Of a DNA stretch of 64,000 nt, positions 32,998-61,446 are shown piece after piece. This stretch comes from an uncultured Gammaproteobacteria bacterium (GTDB lineage: Bacteria > Patescibacteriota > Patescibacteriia > Magasanikbacterales > GWA2-37-8). Both the position numbers and the translations under genes were made by a program. The notes beneath the pieces are model-generated. The model worked only from the letters and a program-made list of their open reading frames with translations. It was not told where the DNA came from and did no database searches. Every line of letters begins with the position of its first letter. The first letter of the stretch is position 1. The stretch spans positions 678,509-742,508 of the forward strand of contig CAZQUL010000001.1 of NCBI GenBank assembly GCA_964596525.1, read 5' to 3'.

Positions 32998-34770
32998 TTA
33001 GATTAGATTTTTTACCATGTAGGTGTTTTCTAGTTCGTATCCCCATTTACGGTAGTAATCTCGTACGCCAACGCCCGAGATAACCGCTAACTTGTCGACA
33101 TTTTTTGATTGAGCGATACCCTCGGCTTTGGCGACGAGCTGTTTGCCTAGACCGCGATGTTGGATATGTTCGGCGTTGCGTTCGCCCAACTCGAGGAGTT
33201 GGCCGTACGTGTGAAGTTCGCGGATGAAAGCGCGGTAGAAGACTTTTTTGGCCGGGTGAAGAGGATTTTCATCGAGGACGCGCAAGCGGCAAAACGCGAA
33301 AACCGCTTGACGATCTTTGTCTTCAAAACTCAAAAAGTACTCTGTTCCGCCCTGCGTAGCGTATTCGTCGATAAATAGTACCGGTGTAGGATCGGCGATG
33401 CTGTGCGGGTCGACATGGCCCACTTCGCGGCAGCGCAAACACTGACAGCGAATGCCGTCCCGTTTCATTTCATCTTCAATGACTTGGCGGAGATTGGTGA
33501 CTTTATTGCCTTCTTCGATGTACTGACCAGGAATGTCGCGAATGAGGCGAGAAACGCGGGTGTAGCGGGGGAGATGGCGCTGAGCTTCTTTTAGTACACG
33601 GATAAGTTCCACCGTCGGGTAGGCGCGGTAGTTTCCGGCTTGAAACCAGTCGTAGAGCTCGGAATTTTTGACGACCGAGCAGGGGTAGATCTTGATCATG
33701 TCGGGGCGGAAACCCGGGTCGTCGAAAACGGTTTTGATCATGGCTAAATCCTTATCGGGTGGTGAACCGGGGAGTTGCGGCATGAGGTGGAGGTCTGCTT
33801 TGAACCCGTAATTGCGCAAAAGTTCGAGAGCATCTTTGGCTTCTTGGTTCGTATGGCCGCGTTTGATGAGAGTAAGCACGTCATCATCGGTATGCTGGAG
33901 GCCGATCTCGAGGCGTGTGGCGCCTAGTTCGCGCATGATCCAGATGGTATGGTCATTGATGCAGTCGGGGCGCGTTTCGAGCGTGAGACCGATGATACGA
34001 TGGGCGGCAGTTTCGTTGATGGTCTGTTCATAGAGGAGTGCGGCGCGTAACTCGGGAAGTGGGGAGTGTTCGGTAAGGATTGCTTTCCTATCATTGCGAG
34101 GAGGTACGACAAAGTAATCCCCCCGTGGTTCAGAGCTTTTTCTACTGCTAATGGGGTTGCTTCGTCGCTCCTGCGTCGCTTCTCGCAATGACACGTTTAG
34201 CTCGTTGCACGCTTGGAATGAACGCAAGATGAACCAATATTGATACTGAAGCGGATACGAATTCCATGTTCCGCCTTTGACGATGAATTCGATTTTATCT
34301 GTGGGGTGGCCGTTATTCTCGAGCGCTTCGAGGCGTCTGGCCATTTGTTCGTACGGGTCAAATTCAAGCGTGAGGGCGCGCATGGCGGCCGGTTCTTCGG
34401 AAAGATAACTTTTGGGCATACGCTCGTCGAGGGGGCAGTAAACGCATTTGCCGGGGCAAGGGTAGGGCTTGATGAGCGATGTGACGATTGCGACGCCGGA
34501 GAGGCTGCGCACCGCGCGGCGGGTGAGAATGCGTTCCAAATACTCGTTCGGTTTGATGTGCGCATTTTTAACCATGGTACGGTACGTTTTGAGGAGTTCC
34601 GTTTTGCTCGGAAAGGCTTCTTTGGATGACAGCTCAGCTACGGCAAGTCGTTTGAGATTATTAAAAGCCGCCTCGCTCTTAGGAGGATTTTCGAGGGCTT
34701 TCTGGATGATGGTTTGGGCGAGGTCCATACGGATAGGCTTTACCTTAGCAAAAACCCTTTGCTTGCGCAA
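32998..34770 (-). CDS. ELP3-family radical-SAM/GNAT protein (tRNA wobble-uridine modification, archaeal/eukaryotic Elp3 homologue).
   Basis: Radical SAM cluster region PCPGKCVYCP following the conserved RSLSGVAIVTSLIKP. A C-terminal GNAT acetyl-CoA motif RGLGKQLV. 590 aa. Confidence 0.8.
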   Translation of the reverse strand: MRKQRVFAKVKPIRMDLAQTIIQKALENPPKSEAAFNNLKRLAVAELSSKEAFPSKTELLKTYRTMVKNAHIKPNEYLERILTRRAVRSLSGVAIVTSLIKPYPCPGKCVYCPLDERMPKSYLSEEPAAMRALTLEFDPYEQMARRLEALENNGHPTDKIEFIVKGGTWNSYPLQYQYWFILRSFQACNELNVSLREATQERRSNPISSRKSSEPRGDYFVVPPRNDRKAILTEHSPLPELRAALLYEQTINETAAHRIIGLTLETRPDCINDHTIWIMRELGATRLEIGLQHTDDDVLTLIKRGHTNQEAKDALELLRNYGFKADLHLMPQLPGSPPDKDLAMIKTVFDDPGFRPDMIKIYPCSVVKNSELYDWFQAGNYRAYPTVELIRVLKEAQRHLPRYTRVSRLIRDIPGQYIEEGNKVTNLRQVIEDEMKRDGIRCQCLRCREVGHVDPHSIADPTPVLFIDEYATQGGTEYFLSFEDKDRQAVFAFCRLRVLDENPLHPAKKVFYRAFIRELHTYGQLLELGERNAEHIQHRGLGKQLVAKAEGIAQSKNVDKLAVISGVGVRDYYRKWGYELENTYMVKNLI

Positions 34771-34784
34771 AGGGCGTGTGGTCT

Positions 34785-35189
34785 TTAGCAGTTGCCGTCG
34801 AGTGGCGGGAAGCCGGGGTTGGAAATGGAGACCGTACCGGTAACTGCGCCTTCGGCCGTGAAAAAGATGGTCGTGCGCATATAGCAGAGACCATCGGAGT
34901 CTCGTTTATAGATCTGCTGCTCATAAGTGGCTGGCGGACGCGTCGCAAGCGGTATGGTCATAGTCGGCGTCTTGAGAGAAAAACGGCATGCATCATCAGT
35001 CGTTACGAATGGGGCCGGCTCGTGGGCGATTGTGCCGATTTCATGGCCGTCCTGAGTTACTTTGCCGCCGACGTAGATGCTGCTGCACAGCTTCTTGCTG
35101 CTCGTAATTGTTTCGGTGCGAACCGGGTGGCCGCACCCAAAAAACATGAAAAACGTCGTGCAAATTCCGGTGTAAAGGTGTTTGGACAT
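34785..35189 (-). CDS. Hypothetical small lipoprotein, paralogue 1.
   Basis: Lipobox FFGCG, 134 aa. The C-terminus is ...PPLDGNC. Confidence 0.45.
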   Translation of the reverse strand: MSKHLYTGICTTFFMFFGCGHPVRTETITSSKKLCSSIYVGGKVTQDGHEIGTIAHEPAPFVTTDDACRFSLKTPTMTIPLATRPPATYEQQIYKRDSDGLCYMRTTIFFTAEGAVTGTVSISNPGFPPLDGNC

Positions 35190-35273
35190 TTTGCCTCCAG
35201 CCGTTTGATAATCGGCATGCGCATGGTAAGTACTGCCGCTCCTATTGTCAATAGTTAATCCTGATAATTAAAG

Positions 35274-37810: not shown

Positions 37811-38365
37811 ATGCGTCCTTTTTTTAGTTTCCTGCTCGTACTTTTGTTCGTTACCCAAGGTAATTCTTCGGCTGAGGCAGCTAAGAAAAGAACCTTGAAA
37901 AAGAAGCCTGCCCGGGCATCGATCAAGAAAATCGAAGAAAAAGAGAAGCCTGTGGCTAAGAAAAATCCTGAAAAGAAAAAGAGGCTGGCTCCATATCCGC
38001 TCATCGAAGTTGCGCCTGTCGACGATAGCGTGCCCACTTTTGGCTCGTCGCCCAGCTCGTATCTGGCAACATGCCTTTTGGATCAACCGTTCAGCGTTCT
38101 GGACAAAGATCAGAAGAATTTGCCTCTTAATAAAGTTTTGAGCAAGCCCGTCTCGGCGGTTTTTATCGAGTGCACCAGTGTGGTGCGCCCGTATTCGGTC
38201 TATACCAAGATTAGCTCCGGCCGCTTTGAGCCGTTTCGGGCGGAGGTGGTCTGTCCGTCTACCGGATCAAAGCGCCGCGGTTTCGTTGAGATCGACACGT
38301 TTGCTTACACGCTCGATCGAGAGCGCGTCATCGGACTTGTTTGCAAAGATCTCGGCTCCAAATAA
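37811..38365 (+). CDS. Hypothetical secreted protein with a Lys-rich N-terminal region.
   Basis: Signal peptide, then KKRTLKKKPARASIKKIEEKEKPVAKKNPEKKKR, then a Cys-containing domain. Confidence 0.4.
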   Translation: MRPFFSFLLVLLFVTQGNSSAEAAKKRTLKKKPARASIKKIEEKEKPVAKKNPEKKKRLAPYPLIEVAPVDDSVPTFGSSPSSYLATCLLDQPFSVLDKDQKNLPLNKVLSKPVSAVFIECTSVVRPYSVYTKISSGRFEPFRAEVVCPSTGSKRRGFVEIDTFAYTLDRERVIGLVCKDLGSK

Positions 38366-40446: not shown

Positions 40447-42087
40447 TTATTGAACGATGAATTTGAAGATGCCCGTATCAACCAACCGCCCACCTTCGCC
40501 CTGGGCATAGATACTGACGTGTATCTTGTATTCACCCTTAACCCAGTTCGCGCCGGTAAAGACCGTCGGCGAAAGAGTCATAGTAGTCCCGGGGGTAACC
40601 GTGAAGGTGGCGTTCGTCCTGGATACTAAAGCGCCTTTGGGGTTGGTAATGTAGCGTTCGATGCGCAGTGGGCCGCTGTAGAGGCGCTGGTTTTTCTTAT
40701 CCATGTAATTGCTCTTCACTGAATAGCGGAAGAAGAAGAGGTTACCGGCCTTAATCGTCATGCCGTTTTGGAGGCTGTACGAGATATTTGAGGGTGGAAT
40801 GTAGTTTGAGCCAATCAATTGCACCTCGTTGGAGCTCGGGCCGACGTTTTTGTCGGCGCTAATGGCGGCCACGAAGTATTTATAGGAACGATCTGGGATG
40901 GCCAGGTATTCACTATGGGTGGTTTGCTCCGTTTCTTTAACAAGGACAGCTTGCGCGCCATCGTTACCAACACGACGATAGAGGCGATAGGCGGCTGCGC
41001 CAGGAATTGCATTCCAGCTTAATTCACCGCTGTACATCGAAGTGAGTTTGCCGGTGAGTGTGGGCGCAGTAAGTGTCGCTCCAGGAGAAACGCTTACTTC
41101 GGCTGAGCTTTGACCGCTTTCACCTTGGGCGTTTTCAGCGCGTACGTAGTACGTGTATGTCGTGCCAGCCGTAAGTCCGCTGTCGGCAAAAGAAGGTGAT
41201 GTTACTTTTCCGACAATCGCGTAGCTCGAACCATCCGGGGCGCGACGGTGAACCGTGTAGGCACTCGCACCAGAAACTGCTGTCCAGTTAAGCCGGATGC
41301 TTGTCAGTGAGGTGATTGAGGCAGAAAGGCCGGTTACCGGACCGGGCACTGCTGCCGGAGGTGGAATGTTGATGGTCGTCGGGGCGGGTGGTAAGACCGG
41401 TGTCGAAAGGGCGAGGTAGGCAGTGCTACGGGTGGTGCCGTCATTTTTGCGTGCCGTTACATAGTAGGTGTATGTGGCGCCGTCAGACAAGCCGGTGTCA
41501 TCATAGTAACTCTGGATCGTGTTGGTGCTGCTATAAATTTTGGTGAACGTGCCACCAGAAGGAGCACGGTACACATCGTATCCCGCAATGTCCTGGAGAG
41601 CCGACCAGCTTACGTGAAGTGATGTGGGGGAGTTATGATGGCCGTTGATTACGAAGATCGAGGCTTCCTGTGTGGCCGAAACCATCGGCGAATTACTGCT
41701 TTCAAGACTACCGTTTAAGGCCGCAATCTTGTAGTTATATTTTTTATTTTCGGCAACCGAGTAGTCATCATAAAAAAGCTGTGTTCCCGGTGTCCAGATG
41801 ACTGGGCTTTGGCTGGCAAAATCCATGTCACTGCCTTCGGTGCGATAGACGACGTAGTTTTGCACGGTGCCGGTTTCTGAAGCGTCCCAGCTCACGGTAA
41901 TGCGGCCCGGGATGTTCATCGTGATGCGGGGGTTGCGCGGAGCGCTTGGGGTGCCCATCATCATGTCGCCCATTTCTTTGGCGAAAACGAATGTCGGCGT
42001 TGTCGCCGTGGCGAGGAGGCTCAGAATGCCAACGGCGGTGAAACTGAGCCGGTGGAGAGTCCGAGAATTCTCTGAGGAGAGTGCCAT
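40447..42087 (-). CDS. Secreted cell-surface protein with multiple fibronectin type III domains (paralogue A).
   Basis: Signal peptide. Fn3-like segments ITVSWDASETGTVQNYVVYRT, LHVSWSALQDIAGYDVYRA, IRLNWTAVSGASAYTVHRR and GELSWNAIPGAAAYRLYRR. Shares the N-terminal AKEMGD...PSAPRNPR with 42226..43953. Confidence 0.6.
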   Translation of the reverse strand: MALSSENSRTLHRLSFTAVGILSLLATATTPTFVFAKEMGDMMMGTPSAPRNPRITMNIPGRITVSWDASETGTVQNYVVYRTEGSDMDFASQSPVIWTPGTQLFYDDYSVAENKKYNYKIAALNGSLESSNSPMVSATQEASIFVINGHHNSPTSLHVSWSALQDIAGYDVYRAPSGGTFTKIYSSTNTIQSYYDDTGLSDGATYTYYVTARKNDGTTRSTAYLALSTPVLPPAPTTINIPPPAAVPGPVTGLSASITSLTSIRLNWTAVSGASAYTVHRRAPDGSSYAIVGKVTSPSFADSGLTAGTTYTYYVRAENAQGESGQSSAEVSVSPGATLTAPTLTGKLTSMYSGELSWNAIPGAAAYRLYRRVGNDGAQAVLVKETEQTTHSEYLAIPDRSYKYFVAAISADKNVGPSSNEVQLIGSNYIPPSNISYSLQNGMTIKAGNLFFFRYSVKSNYMDKKNQRLYSGPLRIERYITNPKGALVSRTNATFTVTPGTTMTLSPTVFTGANWVKGEYKIHVSIYAQGEGGRLVDTGIFKFIVQ

Positions 42088-42225: not shown

Positions 42226-43953
42226 TTATTCGACTTTGAACCCAATTGTTTTGCTGTCGATGAAGCGTCCATTTTCTTGGAGGGCGTAGACATTGATCAC
42301 CATTTTATAGTCTCCTTTCATCCAACCAGAATTGGTAATGACGGTCGGGGTAGAGTTGAACACGTCGCCATATTTTCCGTTCCAGATCGCGCTCGTACGA
42401 AATATGGTGGTACCTCTAGGATTAATAATCGAGCGTTCGATGCGGAAGTTTCCCTTGTACGGGTACAGGCTTCTTGTGTCCAAGTAACCACTCTTGACTG
42501 AGTAGCGGAAGTTAAAGGCGTTGCCCGGTTTGATTCTGACGTTGTCCATGCCGTTCACGGTGATCTGCGACGGGGCGACATAGCTGTCACCTAAGAGTAC
42601 GACTTCGTTTGAGTTTAGACTCGGTTTATCATCGGCACCGTATGCAACTACATAATAGTAATAGGGACGATCTGGGATGAACAGACCTTCGTTAAAAGTA
42701 GTTTCTGTTCCTCCGTACAGTACGTTTGGGGGGCTGTCTTTACTATGGCGGCTAAAGAGGGAGTAAGAGACGGCGCCAGGGACCGCGTTCCAGCTCAACA
42801 CGGCCGAAGCTTTTGAGGTAAGTTTGCCGGTCAGTTGGGGTGCGGCGACTGAAGCGACCTGCACAGGGCTGACCTCGGCCGATCTTTGACCGCTGTCAGA
42901 GCTAACATAGTATGAGTAGGCGGTACCTGGGGTAAACGCAGCATCGACGAAATTGGTCCTAAGGAAGTAGCTTGATAATGTACTGATGACTACAGGGGTG
43001 GGGCTACCTGCAGCACGACGGTATACAGTGTAAGCGGTAGCTCCAGGAACGCTGGTCCAGCTCAGCTGGACGATCGTCGGTGACATGACTATCGCGGAAA
43101 GTTGAATCGCAGCTCCCGGAGCGCTGGTTGTTGGGGTTGAGAAGGCGGGAAGAATTGAGCTCGATTGCGGGGCTGAGCTAGATTGGGGAGGTGGAGCGGC
43201 TGGGGTTGAAAGCTGGACAACCCCCGCGCTCCGTGTCGTTCCGTCGTTCTTGCGGACTACAACGTAATACGAATAACTTGTCTCGGGCAGCAAATTAATA
43301 TCGTCGTAATAAGCCGGAGTCAGCGTGGTGGTGTCCCAGATTTTGACATATTCGCCGTTGCCGGTAGTCCGATACACGCTGTAACCAGTATAACCCTCCG
43401 TTGCCTGCTGGGCTGTCCAACTTAGGTGGAGTGAGGTGGGAGAGTTGTGGTGGCCGCTGAGCACAAAGATGGACTGCTCTTGGGTTACAGAAACTAATGG
43501 TGAGTTGGAACTCTCGAAACTCCCTTTTTGAGCGGCAATTTTGAAATTGTACGTTTTGTTTTCCGAAATGCCGTATGCATCGTAGTATGTTTGGGTTCCT
43601 GGGGTAAAAATATTCGCTGAGACATTGGTGAAGTCGGTGTTTCCAGCTCCTTCAGTCATGTATACCGCGTAATATTCTGGAACTCCTGTTTCCGGAGCGT
43701 CCCAGGCGATGCTGATGCGGCCTGGAACGTTCATGGTAACGCGCGGGTTGCGCGGCGCGCTGGGTGCGCCCATGGAGACGGAATCCCCCATTTCTTTGGC
43801 GTACGTAGCGGAAGGGAGACTGAGCGGTAGGGTGAGACCGATTAGTCCAACTCCGATAACGAGCAGTCCTCCTAAGCGGTAGGAAACAGCTCGGTATGCA
43901 ACCGAGTGTGTCATAGAAAAAAATAACGTAAGTAAATTAGTATAGTATACCAT
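42226..43953 (-). CDS. Secreted cell-surface protein with multiple Fn3 domains (paralogue B).
   Basis: Same domain order and N-terminus as 40447..42087, for example ISIAWDAPETGVPEYYAVYMT and IVQLSWTSVPGATAYTVYRR. Confidence 0.6.
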   Translation of the reverse strand: MVYYTNLLTLFFSMTHSVAYRAVSYRLGGLLVIGVGLIGLTLPLSLPSATYAKEMGDSVSMGAPSAPRNPRVTMNVPGRISIAWDAPETGVPEYYAVYMTEGAGNTDFTNVSANIFTPGTQTYYDAYGISENKTYNFKIAAQKGSFESSNSPLVSVTQEQSIFVLSGHHNSPTSLHLSWTAQQATEGYTGYSVYRTTGNGEYVKIWDTTTLTPAYYDDINLLPETSYSYYVVVRKNDGTTRSAGVVQLSTPAAPPPQSSSAPQSSSILPAFSTPTTSAPGAAIQLSAIVMSPTIVQLSWTSVPGATAYTVYRRAAGSPTPVVISTLSSYFLRTNFVDAAFTPGTAYSYYVSSDSGQRSAEVSPVQVASVAAPQLTGKLTSKASAVLSWNAVPGAVSYSLFSRHSKDSPPNVLYGGTETTFNEGLFIPDRPYYYYVVAYGADDKPSLNSNEVVLLGDSYVAPSQITVNGMDNVRIKPGNAFNFRYSVKSGYLDTRSLYPYKGNFRIERSIINPRGTTIFRTSAIWNGKYGDVFNSTPTVITNSGWMKGDYKMVINVYALQENGRFIDSKTIGFKVE

Positions 43954-44049
43954 ATCTTTCTCGGATGTTATGCGAATAGTCGTGCCAAAACCTTGTTTTT
44001 TGACGAGTAGTGTGGTAACGTCTCTAACAATCTACCTAAGGAGAGGAAC

Positions 44050-44745
44050 GTGACCGCGATTATCGGAAACGTGGTAGTTGATGGTAAAAACTACGGAGTA
44101 AAAGTCGTAAAAGAGGCAAAAAATCCTCATAATCTTGCCGCTAGCTGCAGCTGCCTCGAGCGCCTTAAAGAAGGCGGGCGGGAACGTGAAAAAAACACCG
44201 GTTTTCTGCCGGTCGATCCGCCGCCGGGGAGTGAACCGGGAAGTGCCGGGTACGTCTGCCTCGGTTGTCGGACCTTCTTTTGCCCAGCGGGCTGGGTGGA
44301 ACGGCTGTTTGTCCCTCTTAACACCACGATTATCGGAAATGTAGTAATCGACGGCAAGAAGTACGGAATCAGTGTTGTTGCAGAGACCAAAGAGCCTTAT
44401 TACCTGGCTGCTGTCTGCCGATGTTTTAAAGGAATCGATCAACGAGATCGACATGGGGAAAACACCGGTTTTCTGCCGGTCGATCCGCCGCCGGGGAGTG
44501 AACCGGGAAGTGCCGGGTACGTCTGCCTCGGTTGTCGGACCTTCTTTTGTCCGATCGGAATGACAGGGCAATTGTTCGCACCACTCAACGCCCAAGAGAC
44601 CCCTCCTTCGCCCCATCCGTCACCGGAGGTGATCGAAGAGATGAAGCGTCGGATGCGTGAAGACGGCATCAGCGAGCGTAGTTTCGCCGAGATGAACAAT
44701 CTGATTCATCGCCGCCGACGGCGCCATCGTCACGAGGAAGGCTGA
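44050..44745 (+). CDS. Hypothetical protein built from two tandem Cys-rich units of about 90 aa, plus a basic His/Arg tail.
   Basis: Unit 1 is NVVVDGKNYGVKVV...CSCLERL...NTGFLPVDPPPGSEPGSAGYVCLGCRTFFCP. Unit 2 is NVVIDGKKYGISVV...CRCFKGI...NTGFLPVDPPPGSEPGSAGYVCLGCRTFFCP. The C-terminus is HRRRRRHRHEEG. Confidence 0.5.
   Translation: MTAIIGNVVVDGKNYGVKVVKEAKNPHNLAASCSCLERLKEGGREREKNTGFLPVDPPPGSEPGSAGYVCLGCRTFFCPAGWVERLFVPLNTTIIGNVVIDGKKYGISVVAETKEPYYLAAVCRCFKGIDQRDRHGENTGFLPVDPPPGSEPGSAGYVCLGCRTFFCPIGMTGQLFAPLNAQETPPSPHPSPEVIEEMKRRMREDGISERSFAEMNNLIHRRRRRHRHEEG
44193..44549 (+). repeat. Two identical direct repeats of about 90 bp (44193-44282 and 44460-44549), period about 267 bp, inside the 44050..44745 ORF.
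   Basis: AAACACCGGTTTTCTGCCGGTCGATCCGCCGCCGGGGAGTGAACCGGGAAGTGCCGGGTACGTCTGCCTCGGTTGTCGGACCTTCTTTTG occurs twice. The flanking repeat-unit sequence has diverged to roughly 60% aa identity. Confidence 0.85.
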
Positions 44746-44763
44746 GCACTCTTCCTCCTTACA

Positions 44764-44798
44764 AGTCCTGGCTCGCGCTGTGCAGCCCGGACTTTTTA
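44764..44798 (+). terminator. Terminator after 44050..44745.
   Basis: AGTCCTGGCT...AGCCCGGACT hairpin with one mismatch, followed by TTTTT. Confidence 0.5.
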
Positions 44799-44829
44799 AA
44801 TACCTGCATTCTCGTTATACTACCTAACT

Positions 44830-45849
44830 ATGGTAGTACGTCGTTTTTGGTTTTTTATTCTTGGTTTGGCGGCGTTTGTCGGGTGTGTTGTCGCTGCTTT
44901 TTGCTGGTCGGCACGCCCGGCGAGCGTTCCTCTGTATGGTTTTACCTTCAGTCCGGGATATGCTGCCTGGCTGGGTTATGATTCTGTCGTTTTATTTGAG
45001 CGCATCCTAAATGACATGCCGTTTACGTTGGTGCGCATTCCCGTACCGTGGAGCGAGGTGGAGAAAGTACGCGGATCTTTTTCGTTCGAGCAGTATGATG
45101 CCCTTTTGGCAATCGCCGAGCAGTATAACGTCCGTGTACTTCTCGCGCTCGGACAAAAAGTACCGCGCTGGCCTGAGTGCCATATTCCCGCATGGGCAGA
45201 AGATGTAGCGATGGAGGACTATCGTAGAGCTGTTATGAATTACATCGAAACCGCGGTGCGGCATTTTAAAACTGCATCGTCCGTCGAAGCGTGGCAAATC
45301 GAAAACGAAGCATACGTGCCGTTTGGCGCGTGCGACAGCTTGGTAACTAACATCATTCCTGAAGAAATCGAACGCGTGCGCACGCTCGACGGCCGCCCAA
45401 TAGTCGTGGCTGATAGCGGCGAGTTGTCGCTCTGGCACAGATCTTCGCGGCTCTCGGGCGATTATTTCGGCACGACGCTCTACCGCAGTGTTTGGAATCG
45501 CTATCTTGGGTACTTCACCTATTGGTTTATTCCACCTTTTGCATATCGTGCGCGTGCCCAATGGAATGGCATAGATGCCACTCGTCTCTGGCTCGTCGAA
45601 TTTCAGGCCGAACCCTGGCTTTCCGCCGGTGATCTGCACTCTGCAACGCTCGAGGAACAGCTTAGGACTATGAATCCAAGCATTCTTGCCAACAATCTTG
45701 CGTTTGCACACCGGGTCGGATTTTCGCGTATCTATGCCTGGGGTGTGGAGTGGTGGTACTATCTTGCAGACAACAAAGGTGACCATAGTATGATCGAAAC
45801 AGGGCAGCACCTCTTTTCTTCTCCAGTGATTCCCCAGGTAGGGGATTGA
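44830..45849 (+). CDS. Membrane-anchored protein, possibly a clan GH-A (TIM-barrel) glycoside hydrolase.
   Basis: N-terminal TM helix. WQIENEAY (NE acid/base-like) and LVEFQAEPW (candidate nucleophile Glu) are spaced as in GH5-like enzymes. Weak. Confidence 0.4.
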   Translation: MVVRRFWFFILGLAAFVGCVVAAFCWSARPASVPLYGFTFSPGYAAWLGYDSVVLFERILNDMPFTLVRIPVPWSEVEKVRGSFSFEQYDALLAIAEQYNVRVLLALGQKVPRWPECHIPAWAEDVAMEDYRRAVMNYIETAVRHFKTASSVEAWQIENEAYVPFGACDSLVTNIIPEEIERVRTLDGRPIVVADSGELSLWHRSSRLSGDYFGTTLYRSVWNRYLGYFTYWFIPPFAYRARAQWNGIDATRLWLVEFQAEPWLSAGDLHSATLEEQLRTMNPSILANNLAFAHRVGFSRIYAWGVEWWYYLADNKGDHSMIETGQHLFSSPVIPQVGD

Positions 45850-45885: not shown

Positions 45886-45959
45886 GGACGCCTAGCTCAG
45901 TTGGTTAGAGCATCTCGTTTACACCGAGAGGGTCAGGGGTTCGAATCCCTTGGCGTCCA
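45886..45959 (+). tRNA. tRNA-Val (anticodon TAC). CCA is not encoded.
   Basis: Cloverleaf read manually: acceptor stem GGACGCC/GGCGTCC, D-arm GCTC-AGTTGGTTA-GAGC, anticodon stem TCTCG/CGAGA with loop TTTACAC, T-arm AGGGG-TTCGAAT-CCCTT, discriminator A. Confidence 0.85.
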
Positions 45960-45996
45960 CACCGTATAATCAAAGCCGGTTTTTTATTTGCGCCGG

Positions 45997-47772
45997 TTAG
46001 ACAGCTGCTGTGGAAGGCGGCTTTTGTTCTAGTTGGCTGATCTCGGTAAACCGGCCTTGTTTATCAACGAAGAACCCCATGTCTCCGCCGGAAATGTATG
46101 ATTCTGCTTCAAGCTCGAACATGAGTTTCCCTGTAAGACCACCGGCGTCCTGGATCCGTTTAAGCCATGTTTTTTCCGTTAGGGCACGGCTTCCACTCTT
46201 AGGTAAATTTTCATCGGCAAAGGTGAGGGTCGGACTGTCCTCGCCGCTTGATGTAATGATGGTGGGAAGTCCGATATCAGCACTATCGATACCGATTATT
46301 TTTTCAAGTCCCATGCGCGAATACTGACCCTTGATCGCGGATGCGATCTGGCGGCTCAGATTATGACTCTTGCAGCCGTCAATGAATACAGTCATTTGTT
46401 TTAGACTGTCTTTACCGGCCGTCACTCCCTTTTCTTGAACCTCTTTTAAAAGACGATTAACAAAAGCTAGCGCTATCCCATCGTATTTGAGCGTTGTCGG
46501 GTGTCGGATGTCGTGCGCGTCAATAACGAGTTCTTGCGGTCCGGCATGAGTGGCGATATGTATGTAGGTAGATCCACTGCTCCCTTCGATGCTTTTAAGA
46601 AGCAGATCGCCAGCATTCGTTTTGGTCTTGTCTTTGACGCGACTTGTTTCAATAAACGTAATCCGAGGATCTTTGGCATTTTCTTCTACGCCCATTGCGA
46701 CTTTAGTCATCTTCACTATTTCCTTGCCCTTGAACGTTTCCGCTGCCCCTTTTTCTGCGCCGTAGCTGAAGACGATTACGTGCTTGGTGTCTGGGCCGAG
46801 GATCTTTTTTTTACTCAGCTCCTGCCGTTCTTTAATGAGCTCGCCCAGTTTCTTTTCGGCTTCGGCAGACGTGATGTCGAGGGTCGTGCCGATGGTTGCT
46901 TTAAGCAAAGAAAATGCCCCGGCAACGGATACGTCGGCCGAAGAAAGCTTTTCGCGGATACTTGCTTTATTGAGAAGGCGATTGAATACTTTTTGCCGTT
47001 CGGGGTTGGCCCAGCCGCTCCTTGTCTGAAGATATTTTTCTCTCAATTCCTGAACCTCTCTCGGAAGCTGCACTGCTCGCTCAGGACTTAAATCCGCCAA
47101 TTGGCGCACAGACATGTCGGTTTTATTTCCCAGCCCGACTTTAAAATTTTCTTCAAGTATTGCCCGGGCATCTTCTTCATCTTCGGGCGACCATACTGAT
47201 TCGCTTTTAAGCTGCCGTAATTCTGCTTGGACGATATTTCTGCGGATTCCTTTGGGGGCGTTTTCGAGTTCTTCTTCTAACAATCCTACCTGTTTGATGC
47301 GTGGCTCGATATCTTCAGGTGCTGCGGAAAGAGGGAGGGCATCCTGTGCTTTCAGGCTCAAGCGACGGACCGGATCAGTCTCGTTCCAGCGACGATCGCG
47401 GCTTTCGTCTGCTTTGTTCGTTTCTTTCCCCAGCTGTGAACTACTTTCTTGCCGAGCCGTATCTGTTTTTTGTATGTATGCCGCGCCGCTACCGACGGCA
47501 CTTAAAAGACCGATACCGGCTAATAAGTTGCGAGCTGAATTAAAAAGTCCTTTTTTTGGAGGTCGATTTTTGGAGCGCTGCTCGACGGCGATGAATTTTT
47601 CGCTTGGTGTATCCTCGATCATTTCGAGAACTTTTTCGTCAGCTGGAAACGTGTCTGAGCGCGATAATTCATCCATGATGTCGGTAGCCGAAGTGCCAGA
47701 TTGTTCATACTGGACACGGATTTTTTCTCCGTTTTGCTTAGAACTTTCCCCACCTTTTTTTTCTTGAGACAT
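45997..47772 (-). CDS. Membrane-anchored protein with a coiled-coil region and a C-terminal caspase/CHAT-like His..Cys protease-like domain.
   Basis: One TM helix (LLAGIGLLSAVGSGAAYI) after a basic segment. A caspase-fold-like strand order KHVIVFSYGAEKG ... YIHIATHAG (His-Gly) ... MTVFIDGCKSH (Cys), as in CHAT/peptidase C14 catalytic dyads. Confidence 0.45.
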   Translation of the reverse strand: MSQEKKGGESSKQNGEKIRVQYEQSGTSATDIMDELSRSDTFPADEKVLEMIEDTPSEKFIAVEQRSKNRPPKKGLFNSARNLLAGIGLLSAVGSGAAYIQKTDTARQESSSQLGKETNKADESRDRRWNETDPVRRLSLKAQDALPLSAAPEDIEPRIKQVGLLEEELENAPKGIRRNIVQAELRQLKSESVWSPEDEEDARAILEENFKVGLGNKTDMSVRQLADLSPERAVQLPREVQELREKYLQTRSGWANPERQKVFNRLLNKASIREKLSSADVSVAGAFSLLKATIGTTLDITSAEAEKKLGELIKERQELSKKKILGPDTKHVIVFSYGAEKGAAETFKGKEIVKMTKVAMGVEENAKDPRITFIETSRVKDKTKTNAGDLLLKSIEGSSGSTYIHIATHAGPQELVIDAHDIRHPTTLKYDGIALAFVNRLLKEVQEKGVTAGKDSLKQMTVFIDGCKSHNLSRQIASAIKGQYSRMGLEKIIGIDSADIGLPTIITSSGEDSPTLTFADENLPKSGSRALTEKTWLKRIQDAGGLTGKLMFELEAESYISGGDMGFFVDKQGRFTEISQLEQKPPSTAAV

Positions 47773-47837: not shown

Positions 47838-49043
47838 TTGGTCAATATGGCAATCAAGCTGTTTTGTATGCAGTGTGTTACAATGAGTAAAGGAATATTT
47901 CATCATCAATTTTTTCGTATGAACATGCGGCGCTCGCAAATTGATATGCGCAATCCGATTTTTGAGGAACCAGCGCGGGTAAAGATTGAAAAAACGCCGG
48001 CGAGGGAAAAAAAGGAGTCATTTCCGACTACATTTGGAGCAGCGACTGAGAAGTCTGAAGAACATAAGGATAATGAAGATGCCTATACCGTTTCCACAGA
48101 TGAAATTGGTATTTATGACGGGATGGGTAATAGTTTGCGAGCTAAAGAAGCGGCTCAAACGGTCAAGAAATTTTTTGAAGAACAGTTACGTATTTTGCCT
48201 CCTCAGCCGTCCGCTGAGGCGTTGGCTGAAAAAATGGCGGCAATCACCCGCGAGGCGAGTAAAAATCTTTATGACGCTTCTTTTGATCGAAGCGGGGTAA
48301 AACAAGGGCTTGACGAACTTGGTTCAACGGTCTCTTTCATGAAAGTATGGACCGGTAAAAATCAAGAGAAAAAAGCAGTTATCGTCCATGTCGGTGACAG
48401 TCGCATCTATCGTTTGCGTGAGGGAAAAATATCCCAGCTCACCGAAGATGAATCTGTTTCCAATTGGACCATCGAGCATTCCGGTGTAAGTCCGGAAGGA
48501 CAGCGGCGAGTAAAAGAAGCTCTTGATACTTTTGAAAACGATAAAGATGTTCATCTTGTTGAAGATGAGAAAATCCTTTTTGATTTGGCGTTTAAAAAAC
48601 GCAATAGTATTCGCCAGGCTTTGGGTAAAGAATCCGTCGAGCCACGCACCTATATTTATTCTATCCAGCCGGGCGATGAATATTTCGCCATGTCTGACGG
48701 CATTAGCGATCCGCTCACGAATAAACGCATCGAACGCTCGCTTGCAGGCGACCCTGAGCGTACCATGGAACAGAAAGCGCGGGATTTGATAATGGAAGTC
48801 CATAAAGCCAACGCTGAAGGCATTAAGCGCAAGAAATTTGATGATAAAACCGTTGTCGGCATTGGATTTAGCGAAGAGCTGCCCGACTTATCGGCCGATT
48901 TGATGGAAATGGTTGATGACGAAGGCGAGTTTATCGATCCTGACGATTTGTTTGTGGTTAAGGAAGTTGTAAAAAAACCAGCTCGACCACCTCGCAAACC
49001 CACCGCTCCGCCGCCGTTGCCGCGTATGAAAAAAGCGGCCTAA
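47838..49043 (+). CDS. PP2C-family (PPM) Ser/Thr protein phosphatase with a Pro-rich C-terminal tail.
   Basis: PPM motifs YDGMGNS, HVGDSRIYRL and FAMSDGISD, and a C-terminal DDKTVVGI. The exact start is uncertain. Confidence 0.7.
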   Translation: MVNMAIKLFCMQCVTMSKGIFHHQFFRMNMRRSQIDMRNPIFEEPARVKIEKTPAREKKESFPTTFGAATEKSEEHKDNEDAYTVSTDEIGIYDGMGNSLRAKEAAQTVKKFFEEQLRILPPQPSAEALAEKMAAITREASKNLYDASFDRSGVKQGLDELGSTVSFMKVWTGKNQEKKAVIVHVGDSRIYRLREGKISQLTEDESVSNWTIEHSGVSPEGQRRVKEALDTFENDKDVHLVEDEKILFDLAFKKRNSIRQALGKESVEPRTYIYSIQPGDEYFAMSDGISDPLTNKRIERSLAGDPERTMEQKARDLIMEVHKANAEGIKRKKFDDKTVVGIGFSEELPDLSADLMEMVDDEGEFIDPDDLFVVKEVVKKPARPPRKPTAPPPLPRMKKAA

Positions 49044-50277: not shown

Positions 50278-50829
50278 ATGAAAATCATCATCGGCTTCGG
50301 ATACAGCGATGAAAAGTATGAACACCTGCCCGGTTCCTGGGGCGTGCACGTTGTCCGCCGCGCGGCCGAGCTGGAAGAGGCGGAATTTGAGACCGTCGAA
50401 CACTATCATGCTCGCATTGCCACGTTTCCTGGTGGAATGTTCTGTATGCCGTTGCCCGGAGTTGAGCCACGGATAGCCGCGCTTAGCGTTCTTGAGAGAG
50501 AGCAGCCCAGCATTGAGCGGATGTCTCGGGAAGTGCTGGTTATTTTTCAAAGCACCGAGTATCCGACTGGCGTGGTGAATCTTGCTACAAAAATCCAGCC
50601 TTTTACTACAGTGCCTAACCCGGACGTAAAAAGTTTGGCCGAACAGGTCTGTCGTGGTTGCTCAAAACCGGGCCTTTTTGCTCGGCTGAGTATCAGCTTT
50701 GGTCAATCTTCGCCGTTTCTTCCGGTTCGTATCGGTTCGCGTTCGGTGTACGAGCGGACCTTTATGGATTCTGTACAGCGCGGAACTGTCTTGACTCGTT
50801 ACTGGTTGGCTGGTAAGGCCGGTGTATAG
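50278..50829 (+). CDS. Hypothetical protein.
   Basis: 183-aa ORF, GC-rich, with no motif recognised. A strong terminator follows. Confidence 0.4.
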   Translation: MKIIIGFGYSDEKYEHLPGSWGVHVVRRAAELEEAEFETVEHYHARIATFPGGMFCMPLPGVEPRIAALSVLEREQPSIERMSREVLVIFQSTEYPTGVVNLATKIQPFTTVPNPDVKSLAEQVCRGCSKPGLFARLSISFGQSSPFLPVRIGSRSVYERTFMDSVQRGTVLTRYWLAGKAGV

Positions 50830-57540: not shown

Positions 57541-57630
57541 TGCCTGGCTTTTGTGAGAAAGGTGGTTGAGAAATCGATTGCCTTTCAAAAAGGCTGCCTA
57601 CGGGCAACCTCAATACTATTTATCTTATTT

Positions 57631-60600
57631 ATGAACAAAACCTTTAAACGTGTAGTGACGAGTGTGGTGGCTTTTGCCATGGCTTTCTCGGTCGCTCCCG
57701 TTGCGTCGCTTGCTGCGATTGATCCGTCCTGCCCGACGCTTAACGCTGGTGACGAAGTGAAAGTCGTTGGTCGTTCGGCCATTTACATCGTTGATTACGA
57801 TGGAAAGATCCGCCCGTTCACGAGCGGTGACATCTACAAGACCTACAAGGCCGCTTATGGCAACTACAAGCTTATTGGCGGTGCTTGTCTCAATTCCTTA
57901 CCGCAACCGAGTCAGTTCCCGTCAATCGTTACCTACCGCCCAGGTGCTGTCGTCGTTCGCTACAGCGCTGACCCGACCGGCCAGCTCTACGTAGTACAAC
58001 CCGGCAACGCTTTGGCCAAGATCTCGCTTGAGAACGCTCGCGTTCTCCACGGAGCCAACTTCCGCGTCCGCGACATCTCCCTCATCGACTGGCCGCACTA
58101 CGTAAATCGCCGCGCCGATGTCACTGGTCCTAAAGTGTACCCCGGCATGACGATCCGCACCCCTTCGACGGGTAGCAAAGTGTGGTACGTCTCCACCATG
58201 AACAAACTCCATGAAGTTTCTCCGTCGGCTTTGGCGGCTAACTTCATTCTCCCTGAATACATCTTCACCGTTCCGGATTCTGCTGTAGCGGGTATGGCCA
58301 TGGGTGATGCCATCACTGGTATCAACCCGATGCTCATGGACCGCACTCAGAGCGGCTTCGCTGCTGATGGTACGTGGGTAGGTGTTGGTGCTAACCCCAC
58401 CACTCCGACTGGTCCGGTTTCCGGTTCCCAGTTGAGCGTCTCGCTCGCCTCGAACAACCCGACGAACTCGACCAACATCCCGGTCGGTACTTCGGCTCTT
58501 GCTCGTACTCTTGATCTCTCCTTCTCGGCTGGTAACGCTGATGTGACCGTCACTGGTCTTAACCTCATGCGCACTGGTCTTTCGGTTGATCAGGACATCA
58601 ACAATGTTTACCTCATGGACGGCAACACCATCATCGCTTCCAACCTTGGAATCTCGAATGGTGTCGTCAACTTCAGCAACCCGAGCGCTGCTGGTCTCTT
58701 CAAGGTTCCTGCTAACGGTTCCAAGAAAATCACCGTTGGCGTGACCATGAACTCGTCTGCTGCTGGTCGCACGATCGGCTTCAGCCTCCAGAACGCTTCG
58801 GCTGTCATGAGCAACGCTTCGGCTGTTTCTGGCTCCTTCCCGATGATGAGCGCTACCTACACTGGTACCTCGCTCACCAACTCCGGTGGCGTCCAGATCA
58901 CCAACTCCTCGGCTGGTCCTTCCAGCCCGGGTATCAGCGTCAACGCTGGCCAGAAGAACTTCACGGTCGGTCAGTTCTCCCTCTTGGGTCAGAACCAGAC
59001 TGTCCAGGTTCGCTCGCTCAAGTTCACCTTGATCGGCTCGGCCAACGCTTCTGATGTTACCAACTTCTCCTTGTGGAATGGTGGTACTCAGATCGGCCAG
59101 ACCGTCGGTGTTGCTAACGGCAATGAAGTGGTCTTCGACCTCTCCACGCTTCCGTTGCAGCTCAACGCTGGTCAGAACGTTGTTCTCACTGTTCGCGCTG
59201 ACATCATGGGTGGCGTAAACCGCTACTTCCAGATGTCGGTACAGCGCAACTACGATGTTGTCGCTCACGACATGCAGTTCAACATGGGTGTGCTCCCGAC
59301 TCTCAACACCGGCAGCTTCCCGATGAACTTGTCCTACGTCAACATCAACGCTGGCAGCTTGACGGTTACTCGCTCGACGAGCTCTCCGTCCACCTACCTC
59401 TTGCCGGGCGGCACCAACCAGACGGTTGCTACGTTCGACATGACTGCTAACGGCGAAGCCGTTCGCTTGACCGCTGCCAACATCGGTCTTACCCTTGGCG
59501 GTACCCTCAACCTTTCTCATCTCTCCAACCTCAAGTTGGTTGATGACCAGGGTCAGCAGATCGGTACCACCCAGTCGACCATCTCGAACACCTCGACGGC
59601 TGCTTCGTACAGCAACCTCAACTACATCATCCCGGCCAACACGACCCGCAAGGTCTCCGTGGTCGTTGATGTATCGAGCTCGGCTGCTGGCACCTTCCAG
59701 GCTACCCTCTCGGGTATGACTGGTCAGGGCTTCACCTCGCTCGCCAACCTCACCATTTCTCAGCAGGCTGGTAACTTGCTTACCGCCAACTCCACGATCT
59801 TGACCGTTGCTGCCAATGGCACTCCGGCCAACCTCGTAACTGGTCAGCCGAATGCTAAGATCGGTTCCTTCACCCTCACGGCTGGTGCTGCTTCGGACGT
59901 TTCCGTCTCGAACATCACCTTGAAGGTCCTTTCCACCAACAGCCCGGCCACCGTCTTCCAGAACTTGAAGATGATGATCGGCAACACGCAGATCGGCACC
60001 ACTCAGTCGACCCTTACCAACGGTACTTCGTACAACTTCAGCCTCTCGCAGCCGGTTACCATCACTAAAGGTGGTCAGCTCGTTGTCGATGTTTACGCTG
60101 ATGTCTTGACGAACAACACCTCGTTCTCCGCTACTGCTCCGGTTGCTATCGCTTCTGGTGGTATCTCCGCCATCGCGACCGCTACCAACCAGTCGGTCAC
60201 GAGCGTTCCTGGTTCGGATGTCAACTCGCTCACCGCCACTGTTACCTCGGCTGGCTCTCTCAGCTACTCGCCGATCAACATGCCGGTTGGCGCTCACGTA
60301 GCCATGGGCCTCACCAACGTCAAGTTGGGCACCTATCAGCTCTCGGCTAGCACCAACGAAGACATCAAGGTTACCGATCTTACCTTGCGTGTCACTTCGA
60401 CCAACTCCAACTCGGTACTTGCTCCGCAGTCGTTCGTTAACTACCGCTTGGTAGCTAACGGCATCACCTACGGTCAGGCTACCAACATCAACGCGAGCGC
60501 TTCCGCTTCGCCGTTCGAATTGGTTTGGTCTGGTCTTAACAACGCTGGCAACTTCCTCATCGTACCGAAAGGCGGTACTGTGAACGTCGATGTCATTGCG

Positions 60601-61314
60601 GATGTTAACACCTGGGATAACCTCCAGTCCGTCTCTGGTCTCCACACCGATCTCTACAACGCCGCTACCGCGGTCCGCGTAGCGACCGTTACGTACCAGG
60701 GCGCTGCTTCCTCGGTGGTTGGTAACGCTACCTCCACTGCTGGTGGCAACACGTTCAACGTCTTCCGCTCCACGCTCAGCGCGGCTGCGGCTAGCTCCAT
60801 CCCTGGCGGCTACTCGACGAACGTGCTCTCGAGCGAAGTCAAGACCAGCGGTTACACCTTTACCGCTGCTGCTCAGGGTGACGCGACTCTCCGCCGCATC
60901 TCCTTCAGCTACTTCTTCACGGGTGTCGTTTCCACGAGCCCGACTGCTACCTACACGATCTACATGACCAACCCGTCGTCGCCTGGTTCCGTTGGCGACC
61001 TCGTAGCTACGGGTACCATCAGTCTTGCTAGCTCGTTCTCGGGTACTGTCACCAACCTCGGCCTTGCTCTTCCGGGCAGCGCCTCGGGTAGCGGTGTGAA
61101 GATCGCTGGTGGTGCTTCGGGTGCTCGCACCTTGATCATTGCCTTCACCGGTACTGCGTTTGAATCCAAACCGAACGTCACCGGTAAGTCTGCTGGTACG
61201 CAGCTCGTCAACTGGGGCTGGGATGACCTCACTCGTGGTGTCACCACTCCGGTCGATGCTGATCCGCAGCTTGTGATCTCGCCGATCAACGGTAACACTG
61301 TTTCCTCGAACTAA
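57631..61314 (+). CDS. Giant S-layer-like cell-surface protein (about 1230 aa) with an N-terminal globular domain and long Thr/Ser/Asn/Gly-rich Ig-like repeats.
   Basis: Signal peptide (MNKTFKRVVTSVVAFAMAFSVAPVASLAA). The N-terminal domain of about 200 aa has two Cys. The remainder is low-complexity β-rich repeats (…TVGVTMNSSAAG…, …VVLTVRADIMGG…). A strong terminator lies at 61447-61483. Confidence 0.65.
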   Translation: MNKTFKRVVTSVVAFAMAFSVAPVASLAAIDPSCPTLNAGDEVKVVGRSAIYIVDYDGKIRPFTSGDIYKTYKAAYGNYKLIGGACLNSLPQPSQFPSIVTYRPGAVVVRYSADPTGQLYVVQPGNALAKISLENARVLHGANFRVRDISLIDWPHYVNRRADVTGPKVYPGMTIRTPSTGSKVWYVSTMNKLHEVSPSALAANFILPEYIFTVPDSAVAGMAMGDAITGINPMLMDRTQSGFAADGTWVGVGANPTTPTGPVSGSQLSVSLASNNPTNSTNIPVGTSALARTLDLSFSAGNADVTVTGLNLMRTGLSVDQDINNVYLMDGNTIIASNLGISNGVVNFSNPSAAGLFKVPANGSKKITVGVTMNSSAAGRTIGFSLQNASAVMSNASAVSGSFPMMSATYTGTSLTNSGGVQITNSSAGPSSPGISVNAGQKNFTVGQFSLLGQNQTVQVRSLKFTLIGSANASDVTNFSLWNGGTQIGQTVGVANGNEVVFDLSTLPLQLNAGQNVVLTVRADIMGGVNRYFQMSVQRNYDVVAHDMQFNMGVLPTLNTGSFPMNLSYVNINAGSLTVTRSTSSPSTYLLPGGTNQTVATFDMTANGEAVRLTAANIGLTLGGTLNLSHLSNLKLVDDQGQQIGTTQSTISNTSTAASYSNLNYIIPANTTRKVSVVVDVSSSAAGTFQATLSGMTGQGFTSLANLTISQQAGNLLTANSTILTVAANGTPANLVTGQPNAKIGSFTLTAGAASDVSVSNITLKVLSTNSPATVFQNLKMMIGNTQIGTTQSTLTNGTSYNFSLSQPVTITKGGQLVVDVYADVLTNNTSFSATAPVAIASGGISAIATATNQSVTSVPGSDVNSLTATVTSAGSLSYSPINMPVGAHVAMGLTNVKLGTYQLSASTNEDIKVTDLTLRVTSTNSNSVLAPQSFVNYRLVANGITYGQATNINASASASPFELVWSGLNNAGNFLIVPKGGTVNVDVIADVNTWDNLQSVSGLHTDLYNAATAVRVATVTYQGAASSVVGNATSTAGGNTFNVFRSTLSAAAASSIPGGYSTNVLSSEVKTSGYTFTAAAQGDATLRRISFSYFFTGVVSTSPTATYTIYMTNPSSPGSVGDLVATGTISLASSFSGTVTNLGLALPGSASGSGVKIAGGASGARTLIIAFTGTAFESKPNVTGKSAGTQLVNWGWDDLTRGVTTPVDADPQLVISPINGNTVSSN

Positions 61315-61446
61315 CCTTTGAGGACAGGTTACTCGCTTGGGTAGCGTAAAAAACCTACAACTCCCGCTTGGTAACAAGCGGGAGTTGTTTTATAAGGCCA
61401 ACGAGAGAAAGTGTGTCTTGGGTGTTGATTGATTGAAGCTTTGGCG

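Follow-up and report, generated by a model that had tools for sequence, protein, structure and literature searches.

A recent gene-conversion tract as the probable source of an identical 91-nt core in two diverged units of an orphan cysteine-rich gene

How can two tandem units of one small bacterial gene have diverged to 60% DNA identity and still share a stretch in which not a single nucleotide differs? This question is raised by a 231-aa ORF in the 64-kb stretch of DNA analyzed here (referred to as the window), in which two cysteine-rich units follow each other in frame. A preliminary description of the DNA had proposed three explanations for the shared core, namely gene conversion, selection acting on the nucleotide sequence itself, and an assembly artefact. 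Our analysis favors the first of these. The best explanation, to which we assign a probability of roughly 0.75, is a recent and short gene-conversion tract between old intragenic duplicates, located in a real, lineage-specific protein-coding gene.

A duplicated cysteine-rich unit under purifying selection

The ORF, its parts and its flanking signals occupy the following positions in the window.

44038-44046, plus strand: Shine-Dalgarno-like AAGGAGAGG, identified by inspection of the sequence, with 3 nt between it and the GTG
44050-44745, plus strand: protein-coding ORF of 231 aa with a GTG start, comprising two cysteine-rich units and a basic tail; a singleton without a family
44053-44322, plus strand: unit 1, 90 aa, with a beta-hairpin, C-x-C, a charged loop, a Pro/Gly-rich linker and C-x-x-C-x4-C, the secondary structure being taken from low-confidence AF2 models
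44323-44589, plus strand: unit 2, 89 aa, a paralogue of unit 1 minus one codon (tblastn of unit against unit, E = 1e-37)
44590-44742, plus strand: unique C-terminal tail, 51 aa, consisting of a Pro/Ser linker and two predicted helices ending in HRRRRRHRHEEG
44763-44798, plus strand: terminator-like GC-rich hairpin followed by TTTTT, starting 18 nt past the stop codon

This arrangement agrees with the preliminary description, which had proposed a 231-aa ORF built from two units of about 90 aa (here placed at 44053-44322 and 44323-44589), a conserved cysteine pattern in each unit and a basic HRRRRRHRH tail, found at the end of the ORF. Five cysteines per unit are kept in both, in the order C-x-C, 34 residues (33 in unit 2) and C-x-x-C-x4-C. 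The first two of them, C32 and C34, are retained in both units despite their location in the diverged flank. No signal peptide was detected in the 231-aa protein, and the protein is therefore probably cytoplasmic. The region of the terminator-like hairpin (44745-44830) folds with an energy of -16.9 kcal/mol (z = -2.09); the hairpin is absent from the output of a consensus terminator scan, and a consensus scan for sigma-70-type promoters returned none on the plus strand.

The reading frame was evaluated by comparing the two units across all six frames with respect to pN/pS and stop codons. The frame of the 231-aa ORF is the sole stop-free frame in which pN/pS lies well below 1, with values of 0.38 in the flank 5' of the core and 0.27 in the flank 3' of it. 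The Shine-Dalgarno-like sequence ahead of the start codon adds support to this frame. The frame of a 194-aa antisense ORF yields 0.68 and 1.08, and every other frame is either interrupted by stops or has ratios near or above 1. By codon position, the differences number 19/4/28 in the 5' flank and 4/6/11 in the 3' flank. The antisense ORFs had been regarded as shadows of the repeat, an interpretation borne out by the ratios of 0.68-1.08 in the 194-aa antisense frame against 0.27-0.38 in the plus-strand frame, and the other alternative-frame ORFs are likewise shadows. Since pS in the flanks is saturated at 0.80 and pN is 0.28, the duplication is old and the frame is under purifying selection. 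Both units have thus been maintained as protein by purifying selection since that old duplication.

The identical core and its probable origin

Within these diverged units, repeat finding and an exact pattern search located a direct repeat whose copies start 267 nt apart and in frame.

44192-44282, plus strand: repeat copy 1, exact over 91 nt, one end of the proposed conversion tract
44459-44549, plus strand: repeat copy 2, exact over 91 nt, the other end of the proposed conversion tract

An identical core of 90 bp had been described at 44193-44282 and 44460-44549; its exact identity holds, but its extent is 91 nt, beginning one position earlier in each copy. The identical peptide reported for both units is present as NTGFLPVDPPPGSEPGSAGYVCLGCRTFFCP, the last two codons of which (Cys TGC/TGT and Pro CCA/CCG) differ synonymously just outside the exact repeat. 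Outside the core, the flanks are identical at 60% of DNA positions and 53% of protein positions (32/60 codons), the latter value being near the earlier figure of about 60% aa identity. The core pair is the only repeat of at least 30 nt in the 64-kb window, where no third copy was found even when up to 3 mismatches were allowed. Tandem Repeats Finder gave no report at the locus because the units are too diverged overall. A second region of similarity is formed by the first eight codons of the units (44053-44076 and 44323-44346), which are identical at 21 of 24 nt (TAIIGNVV and TTIIGNVV), well over the flank average; it may represent an older, decayed conversion tract or strong local constraint.

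The significance of the core was assessed on the aligned units by a run-length test in the spirit of GENECONV (Sawyer logic). With 71 differences among 267 aligned sites, the longest identical run of 91 has an analytic probability of ~5e-14, and the largest run among 200,000 permutations was 47. Third codon positions alone contain an identical run of 30 out of 89 (P ~4e-8). The 91-nt identical run is therefore real and far beyond chance. Substitution values and codon identity were as follows for the two parts of the alignment.

Flanks: pS 0.80 (saturated); pN 0.28; 14/32 degenerate codons for the same amino acid identical
Core: pS 0; pN 0; 29/29 degenerate codons for the same amino acid identical

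The difference in degenerate-codon identity between core and flanks is significant (Fisher p = 3.9e-7). Since the synonymous sites have been homogenized as well, conservation at the protein level is unable to explain the identity of the core.

Among the marks of gene conversion are two paralogous sequences in one genome, a tract longer than the divergence of its flanks predicts and homogenized synonymous sites. The two units supply the first (tblastn E = 1e-37), the run-length test the second (P ~5e-14) and the degenerate codons the third (29/29 versus 14/32). Together with the saturated flanks, these observations give good support to the earlier suggestion that gene conversion acts at this locus. 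From the pattern of the tract we infer the recombination mechanism itself. An in-frame tandem duplication of a ~90-aa unit would have come first, followed by a long period of divergence in which synonymous sites became saturated. A short, non-reciprocal homologous recombination event would then have copied 91 nt from one unit onto the other, leaving the segment encoding NTGFLPVDPPPGSEPGSAGYVCLGCRTFFC free of any difference, even at synonymous sites. If a RecA-type exchange started at a flank identity of ~60%, the core would presumably have had to be unusually similar already. Once made, the 91-nt identical tract could seed more conversion or the in-frame loss or gain of a unit. Ninety-one nucleotides exceed the minimal homology needed by bacterial recombination. 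As a perfect, in-frame direct repeat with copies 267 nt apart, the tract is a recombination substrate, so that variants differing in unit number may exist in the population.

Known examples of conversion in prokaryotes include tufA/tufB, rRNA operons and repeat domains of surface proteins. The present locus resembles known short-tract conversion between prokaryotic paralogues in that a fully identical block, synonymous sites included, lies within diverged paralogous sequence, and in that the partners are near each other, in direct orientation, with a significant GENECONV-type run. The locus differs from the known cases in its partners, which are not two genes but two domains within a single small orphan gene, in the shortness of the tract (91 nt) and in the unusual divergence of the flanks (~60% DNA identity with saturated synonymous sites). 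That paralogues in prokaryotes undergo gene conversion and concerted evolution is well established (PMC6053082, PMC12046097).

Assembly, nucleotide selection and other alternatives

An assembly or polishing artefact would imply either that the true gene has one unit or that differing cores were homogenized by mis-mapped reads during consensus polishing. The locus is known from a single genome record, and 91 nt, shorter than typical reads, is yet enough to confuse k-mer assemblers. A second assembly that carries the locus, the Logan k=31 assembly of run SRR11567528, indeed breaks there, and the positions of the breaks are informative. The Logan contig with the upstream fibronectin type III (fn3) gene (52.7 kb) matches the window at 100% over the 300 nt compared and ends at 44221, so that it includes just the initial 30 nt of repeat copy 1. 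On the other side, the 1,403-nt contig that carries the downstream gene starts at 44520 and contains just the last 30 nt of copy 2; it agrees with the window in the stretch compared by eye. Both outer breaks lie exactly k-1 = 30 nt inside the repeat, as expected for a repeat with two entrances and two exits in the de Bruijn graph. This argues against a single-unit gene, because a single unit would give an unbroken linear k-mer path. The Logan contigs confirm the outer 30 nt at each end, whereas identity further inside the two copies is seen in one assembly, as the second assembly reads neither the repeat interior nor the junction of unit 1 with unit 2. The ~12 nt that this junction has in common with the start of the gene are too few to have caused a false join. 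Furthermore, the units differ at 71/267 sites in a codon-structured manner (pN/pS ~0.3), a pattern that no assembler duplication makes, and homogenization by polishing rarely yields a clean, contiguous tract with sharp borders. The artefact considered in the preliminary description is weakened by the k-1 breaks at both outer borders and by the identical flanks in the second assembly, and we judge it very unlikely.

Selection on the nucleotide sequence would keep the cores identical if they formed a duplicated cis RNA or DNA element (a binding site for a protein or an sRNA), an embedded gene, or a substrate for programmed in-frame gain and loss of units. Zero synonymous change over 29 codons is what such selection would produce, and the most conserved peptide includes a Pro/Gly/Ser linker, which is not normally the most constrained part of a protein. 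Short ORFs in another frame also cross both cores (44135-44344 and 44372-44563), and the 267-nt spacing leaves any recombinant in frame. However, the RNA fold of the core is no better than that of shuffled sequences (z = -1.19 and -0.66 for the two strands), and neither folding against shuffles nor Rfam, whose sole match was a tRNA-Val at 45886-45959, indicated a structured RNA in the core. There is no extra copy in the 64 kb and no match in metagenomes, genomes or viral sequences. The alternative-frame ORFs carry stops and have pN/pS of ~1 or more in the flanks, and a single recent conversion accounts for the same data more simply. With z = -1.19 for the fold, no Rfam match for the core and an ordinary GC3, the suggestion that selection acts on the nucleotide sequence gained no positive support, and it appears very improbable. 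Still more doubtful is the specific version in which DNA-level selection holds the core identical, either because recombination or replication slippage at an in-frame repeat would allow a lineage-specific metal-binding protein to alternate between forms with one, two or three units, or because the core is a cis-regulatory site, in RNA or DNA, that occurs twice. The core was also considered as a foreign or mobile insert. This was rejected because neither the window nor the collections searched contain another copy and because 22% of 30-codon windows in the genes of the window have a GC3 as high as that of the core (0.67) or higher.

Direct repeats of ~100 nt are used by diversity-generating retroelements, which occur commonly in bacteria of the candidate phyla radiation (CPR), and multi-core precursors of ribosomally made, post-translationally modified peptides are often rich in cysteine. 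The host is of CPR type, the locus combines two direct repeats of ~100 nt, at least one of them coding, with a cysteine-rich protein, and the copies could accordingly be conceived as template and variable repeats of such a retroelement or as repeated core peptides of such a precursor. Against the retroelement, the copies show 0 mismatches of any kind and hence no adenine-specific differences, both repeats lie within the same ORF, and no nearby reverse transcriptase was found. Among the ORFs scanned at 33-55 kb with Pfam, NCBIfam, PADLOC and PHROGs, no match to a reverse transcriptase or a peptide-modifying enzyme was obtained, four of these ORFs (34776-35258, 37811-38365, 50278-50829 and the 591-aa ORF at 45997-47772) having no informative family match. 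In known multi-core precursors, it is the recognition flanks, not the cores, that are conserved. Either origin is barely credible.

Host, genomic surroundings and predicted function

Homology searches returned no true relative of the protein. In a word-indexed search of 5.8 billion clusters, the sole match was the protein itself, a 1-member NCBI cluster from a contig of 1,343,778 bp, and a full HMMER scan of 1.84 billion representatives gave the protein itself and one further sequence (P0002, 366 aa). This second match was rejected as a homologue, as it is a translation through a 77-bp satellite array whose E = 1.7e-7 accumulates from five repeated weak stretches. Its source (ENA ERZ25070786 ctg28234l, 1911-3049) is a 77-bp tandem satellite of 14.8 copies with 97% matches, and it provides an example of a spurious repeat ORF that obtains a misleadingly good HMMER E-value against a repeat-containing query. 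The single match in a scan of GTDB genomes was also spurious, lying in the wrong frame of an IMP-dehydrogenase-like gene. Searches of the JGI metagenomes with peptide patterns and with a degenerate DNA pattern for YVCLGCRTFFCP found nothing, as did a search of IMG/VR viral contigs, so that 15 billion proteins, the GTDB representative genomes, the JGI metagenomes and IMG/VR yielded no homologue. Pfam, NCBIfam, PHROGs, PADLOC and the PDB sequences likewise gave nothing above threshold. The earlier impression that the protein belongs to no recognizable family was thus correct; as a true singleton, it might be the founding example of a new small cysteine-rich domain.

The neighboring genes indicate the kind of genome in which this singleton resides. 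For the glycoside-hydrolase-like gene that follows downstream (44830-45849), more than 2,000 homologues were found. The best of them share 41-45% identity with it, and where these carry a source name it is Candidatus Magasanikbacteria, Parcubacteria or Patescibacteria. This suggests a deep-branching host of CPR type whose close relatives have not been sequenced, which largely explains the orphan status of the cysteine-rich gene. In GCA_964407865.1 (CAYOXC010000001.1), the gene order is an Elp3-like radical SAM gene (minus strand), a methyltransferase (plus), a GT4 glycosyltransferase (minus), FolD, EamA, a glycoside hydrolase (plus), a Trp/Tyr permease (plus) and a DUF11-like gene (minus). The window shares this Elp3-to-DUF11-like backbone at 33000-54800 with distant Patescibacteria (GCA_964407865.1 and a second sequence). 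The slot occupied by FolD and EamA in the relatives is filled here by two paralogous fn3 genes and the cysteine-rich ORF. The Patescibacteria backbone is thus conserved around the cysteine-rich gene, which itself belongs to a lineage-specific island.

Several other features of the window were recorded. The tandem fn3 paralogues (40447-42087 and 42226-43953, both on the minus strand) encode proteins of ~550-575 aa in which a hydrophobic segment at the N-terminus is accompanied by several fibronectin type III domains (Pfam fn3 E = 7.5e-15); their weak PHROGs matches to 'major tail protein' are probably due to Ig-like or fn3 domains. Unlike the units of the cysteine-rich ORF, they share no exact DNA tract of at least 30 nt. 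A tRNA-Val gene (anticodon TAC; 45886-45960, plus strand) lies directly 3' of the glycoside-hydrolase-like gene; it contains another break of the Logan contig of SRR11567528, presumably caused by other organisms in the sample that have the same tRNA sequence. Relative to the gene order of the distant Patescibacteria, a 591-aa ORF (45997-47772, minus strand) and a PP2C-type phosphatase (47838-49043, plus strand; Pfam PP2C_2 E = 4e-9) are inserted after the tRNA-Val as a divergent pair. The 591-aa ORF has no family, its weak match to a XopAJ/AvrRxo1 zeta-toxin-like profile (E = 0.006) being far below the cut-off. Elp3 is uncommon in bacteria, and the window contains a full-length bacterial homologue of this tRNA U34 modification radical SAM/GNAT enzyme (32998-34770, minus strand; TIGR01211 E = 1e-157). 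A 2,096-aa ORF (55-6345, plus strand) opens the window, and a 1,253-aa ORF without an NCBIfam match (57553-61314, plus strand) is overlapped nearly fully by a 1,151-aa antisense ORF (57922-61377, minus strand). As usual for CPR genomes, many of the large ORFs in this stretch match no family.

The conserved cysteines provide the main clue to function. The C-x-C ... C-x-x-C-x4-C pattern is compatible with a Cys4 site and differs from the canonical pair of C-x-x-C knuckles. Like treble-clef and zinc-ribbon domains (for instance FYVE/PHD-like fingers with their C-x-x-C-G-x-x-F-C knuckle), the units have a C-x-x-C, here located at a predicted beta-turn and with F-F-C after it. In contrast to those domains, their second ligand pair is C-x-C rather than C-x-x-C, and they have neither a PDB sequence match nor a structural match. 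No profile of such a domain reached its threshold; the best Pfam match, FYVE_CARP1-2 on YVCLGCRTFFCP, obtained 14 bits (E = 0.056), far short of its cut-off of 27. AF2 returned a pLDDT of 51.8 for the full protein, and a pLDDT of 60.6 with a pTM of 0.47 for the unit model, in which unit 1 was aligned with unit 2. The best-scoring part of the full model is the tail (pLDDT 66-77), with helices at 192-204 and 209-230. Foldseek searches of the PDB with these weak AF2 models as query gave only noise and no match with E ≤ 0.001. Judging from the sequence pattern, and at low confidence, the five conserved cysteines of each unit probably serve in metal binding, with zinc as the likeliest metal. The modeled Arg/His-rich helical tail tentatively suggests binding to nucleic acid or another polyanion.

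Gene conversion as such is a known phenomenon, and the present locus is a real but ordinary case that indicates no new mechanism; it is a very short and clean instance in an orphan gene. The locus marks a spot where short-read assemblies break or collapse. It also cautions that identical cores in diverged repeats should not be taken as protein-level conservation. For the organism, the locus offers a clean, small case of mosaic divergence within one bacterial gene, in which saturated old duplicates are interrupted by a sharp and recent 91-nt tract, pointing to homologous recombination over very short tracts in a CPR-type bacterium whose reduced genome measures ~1.3 Mb.
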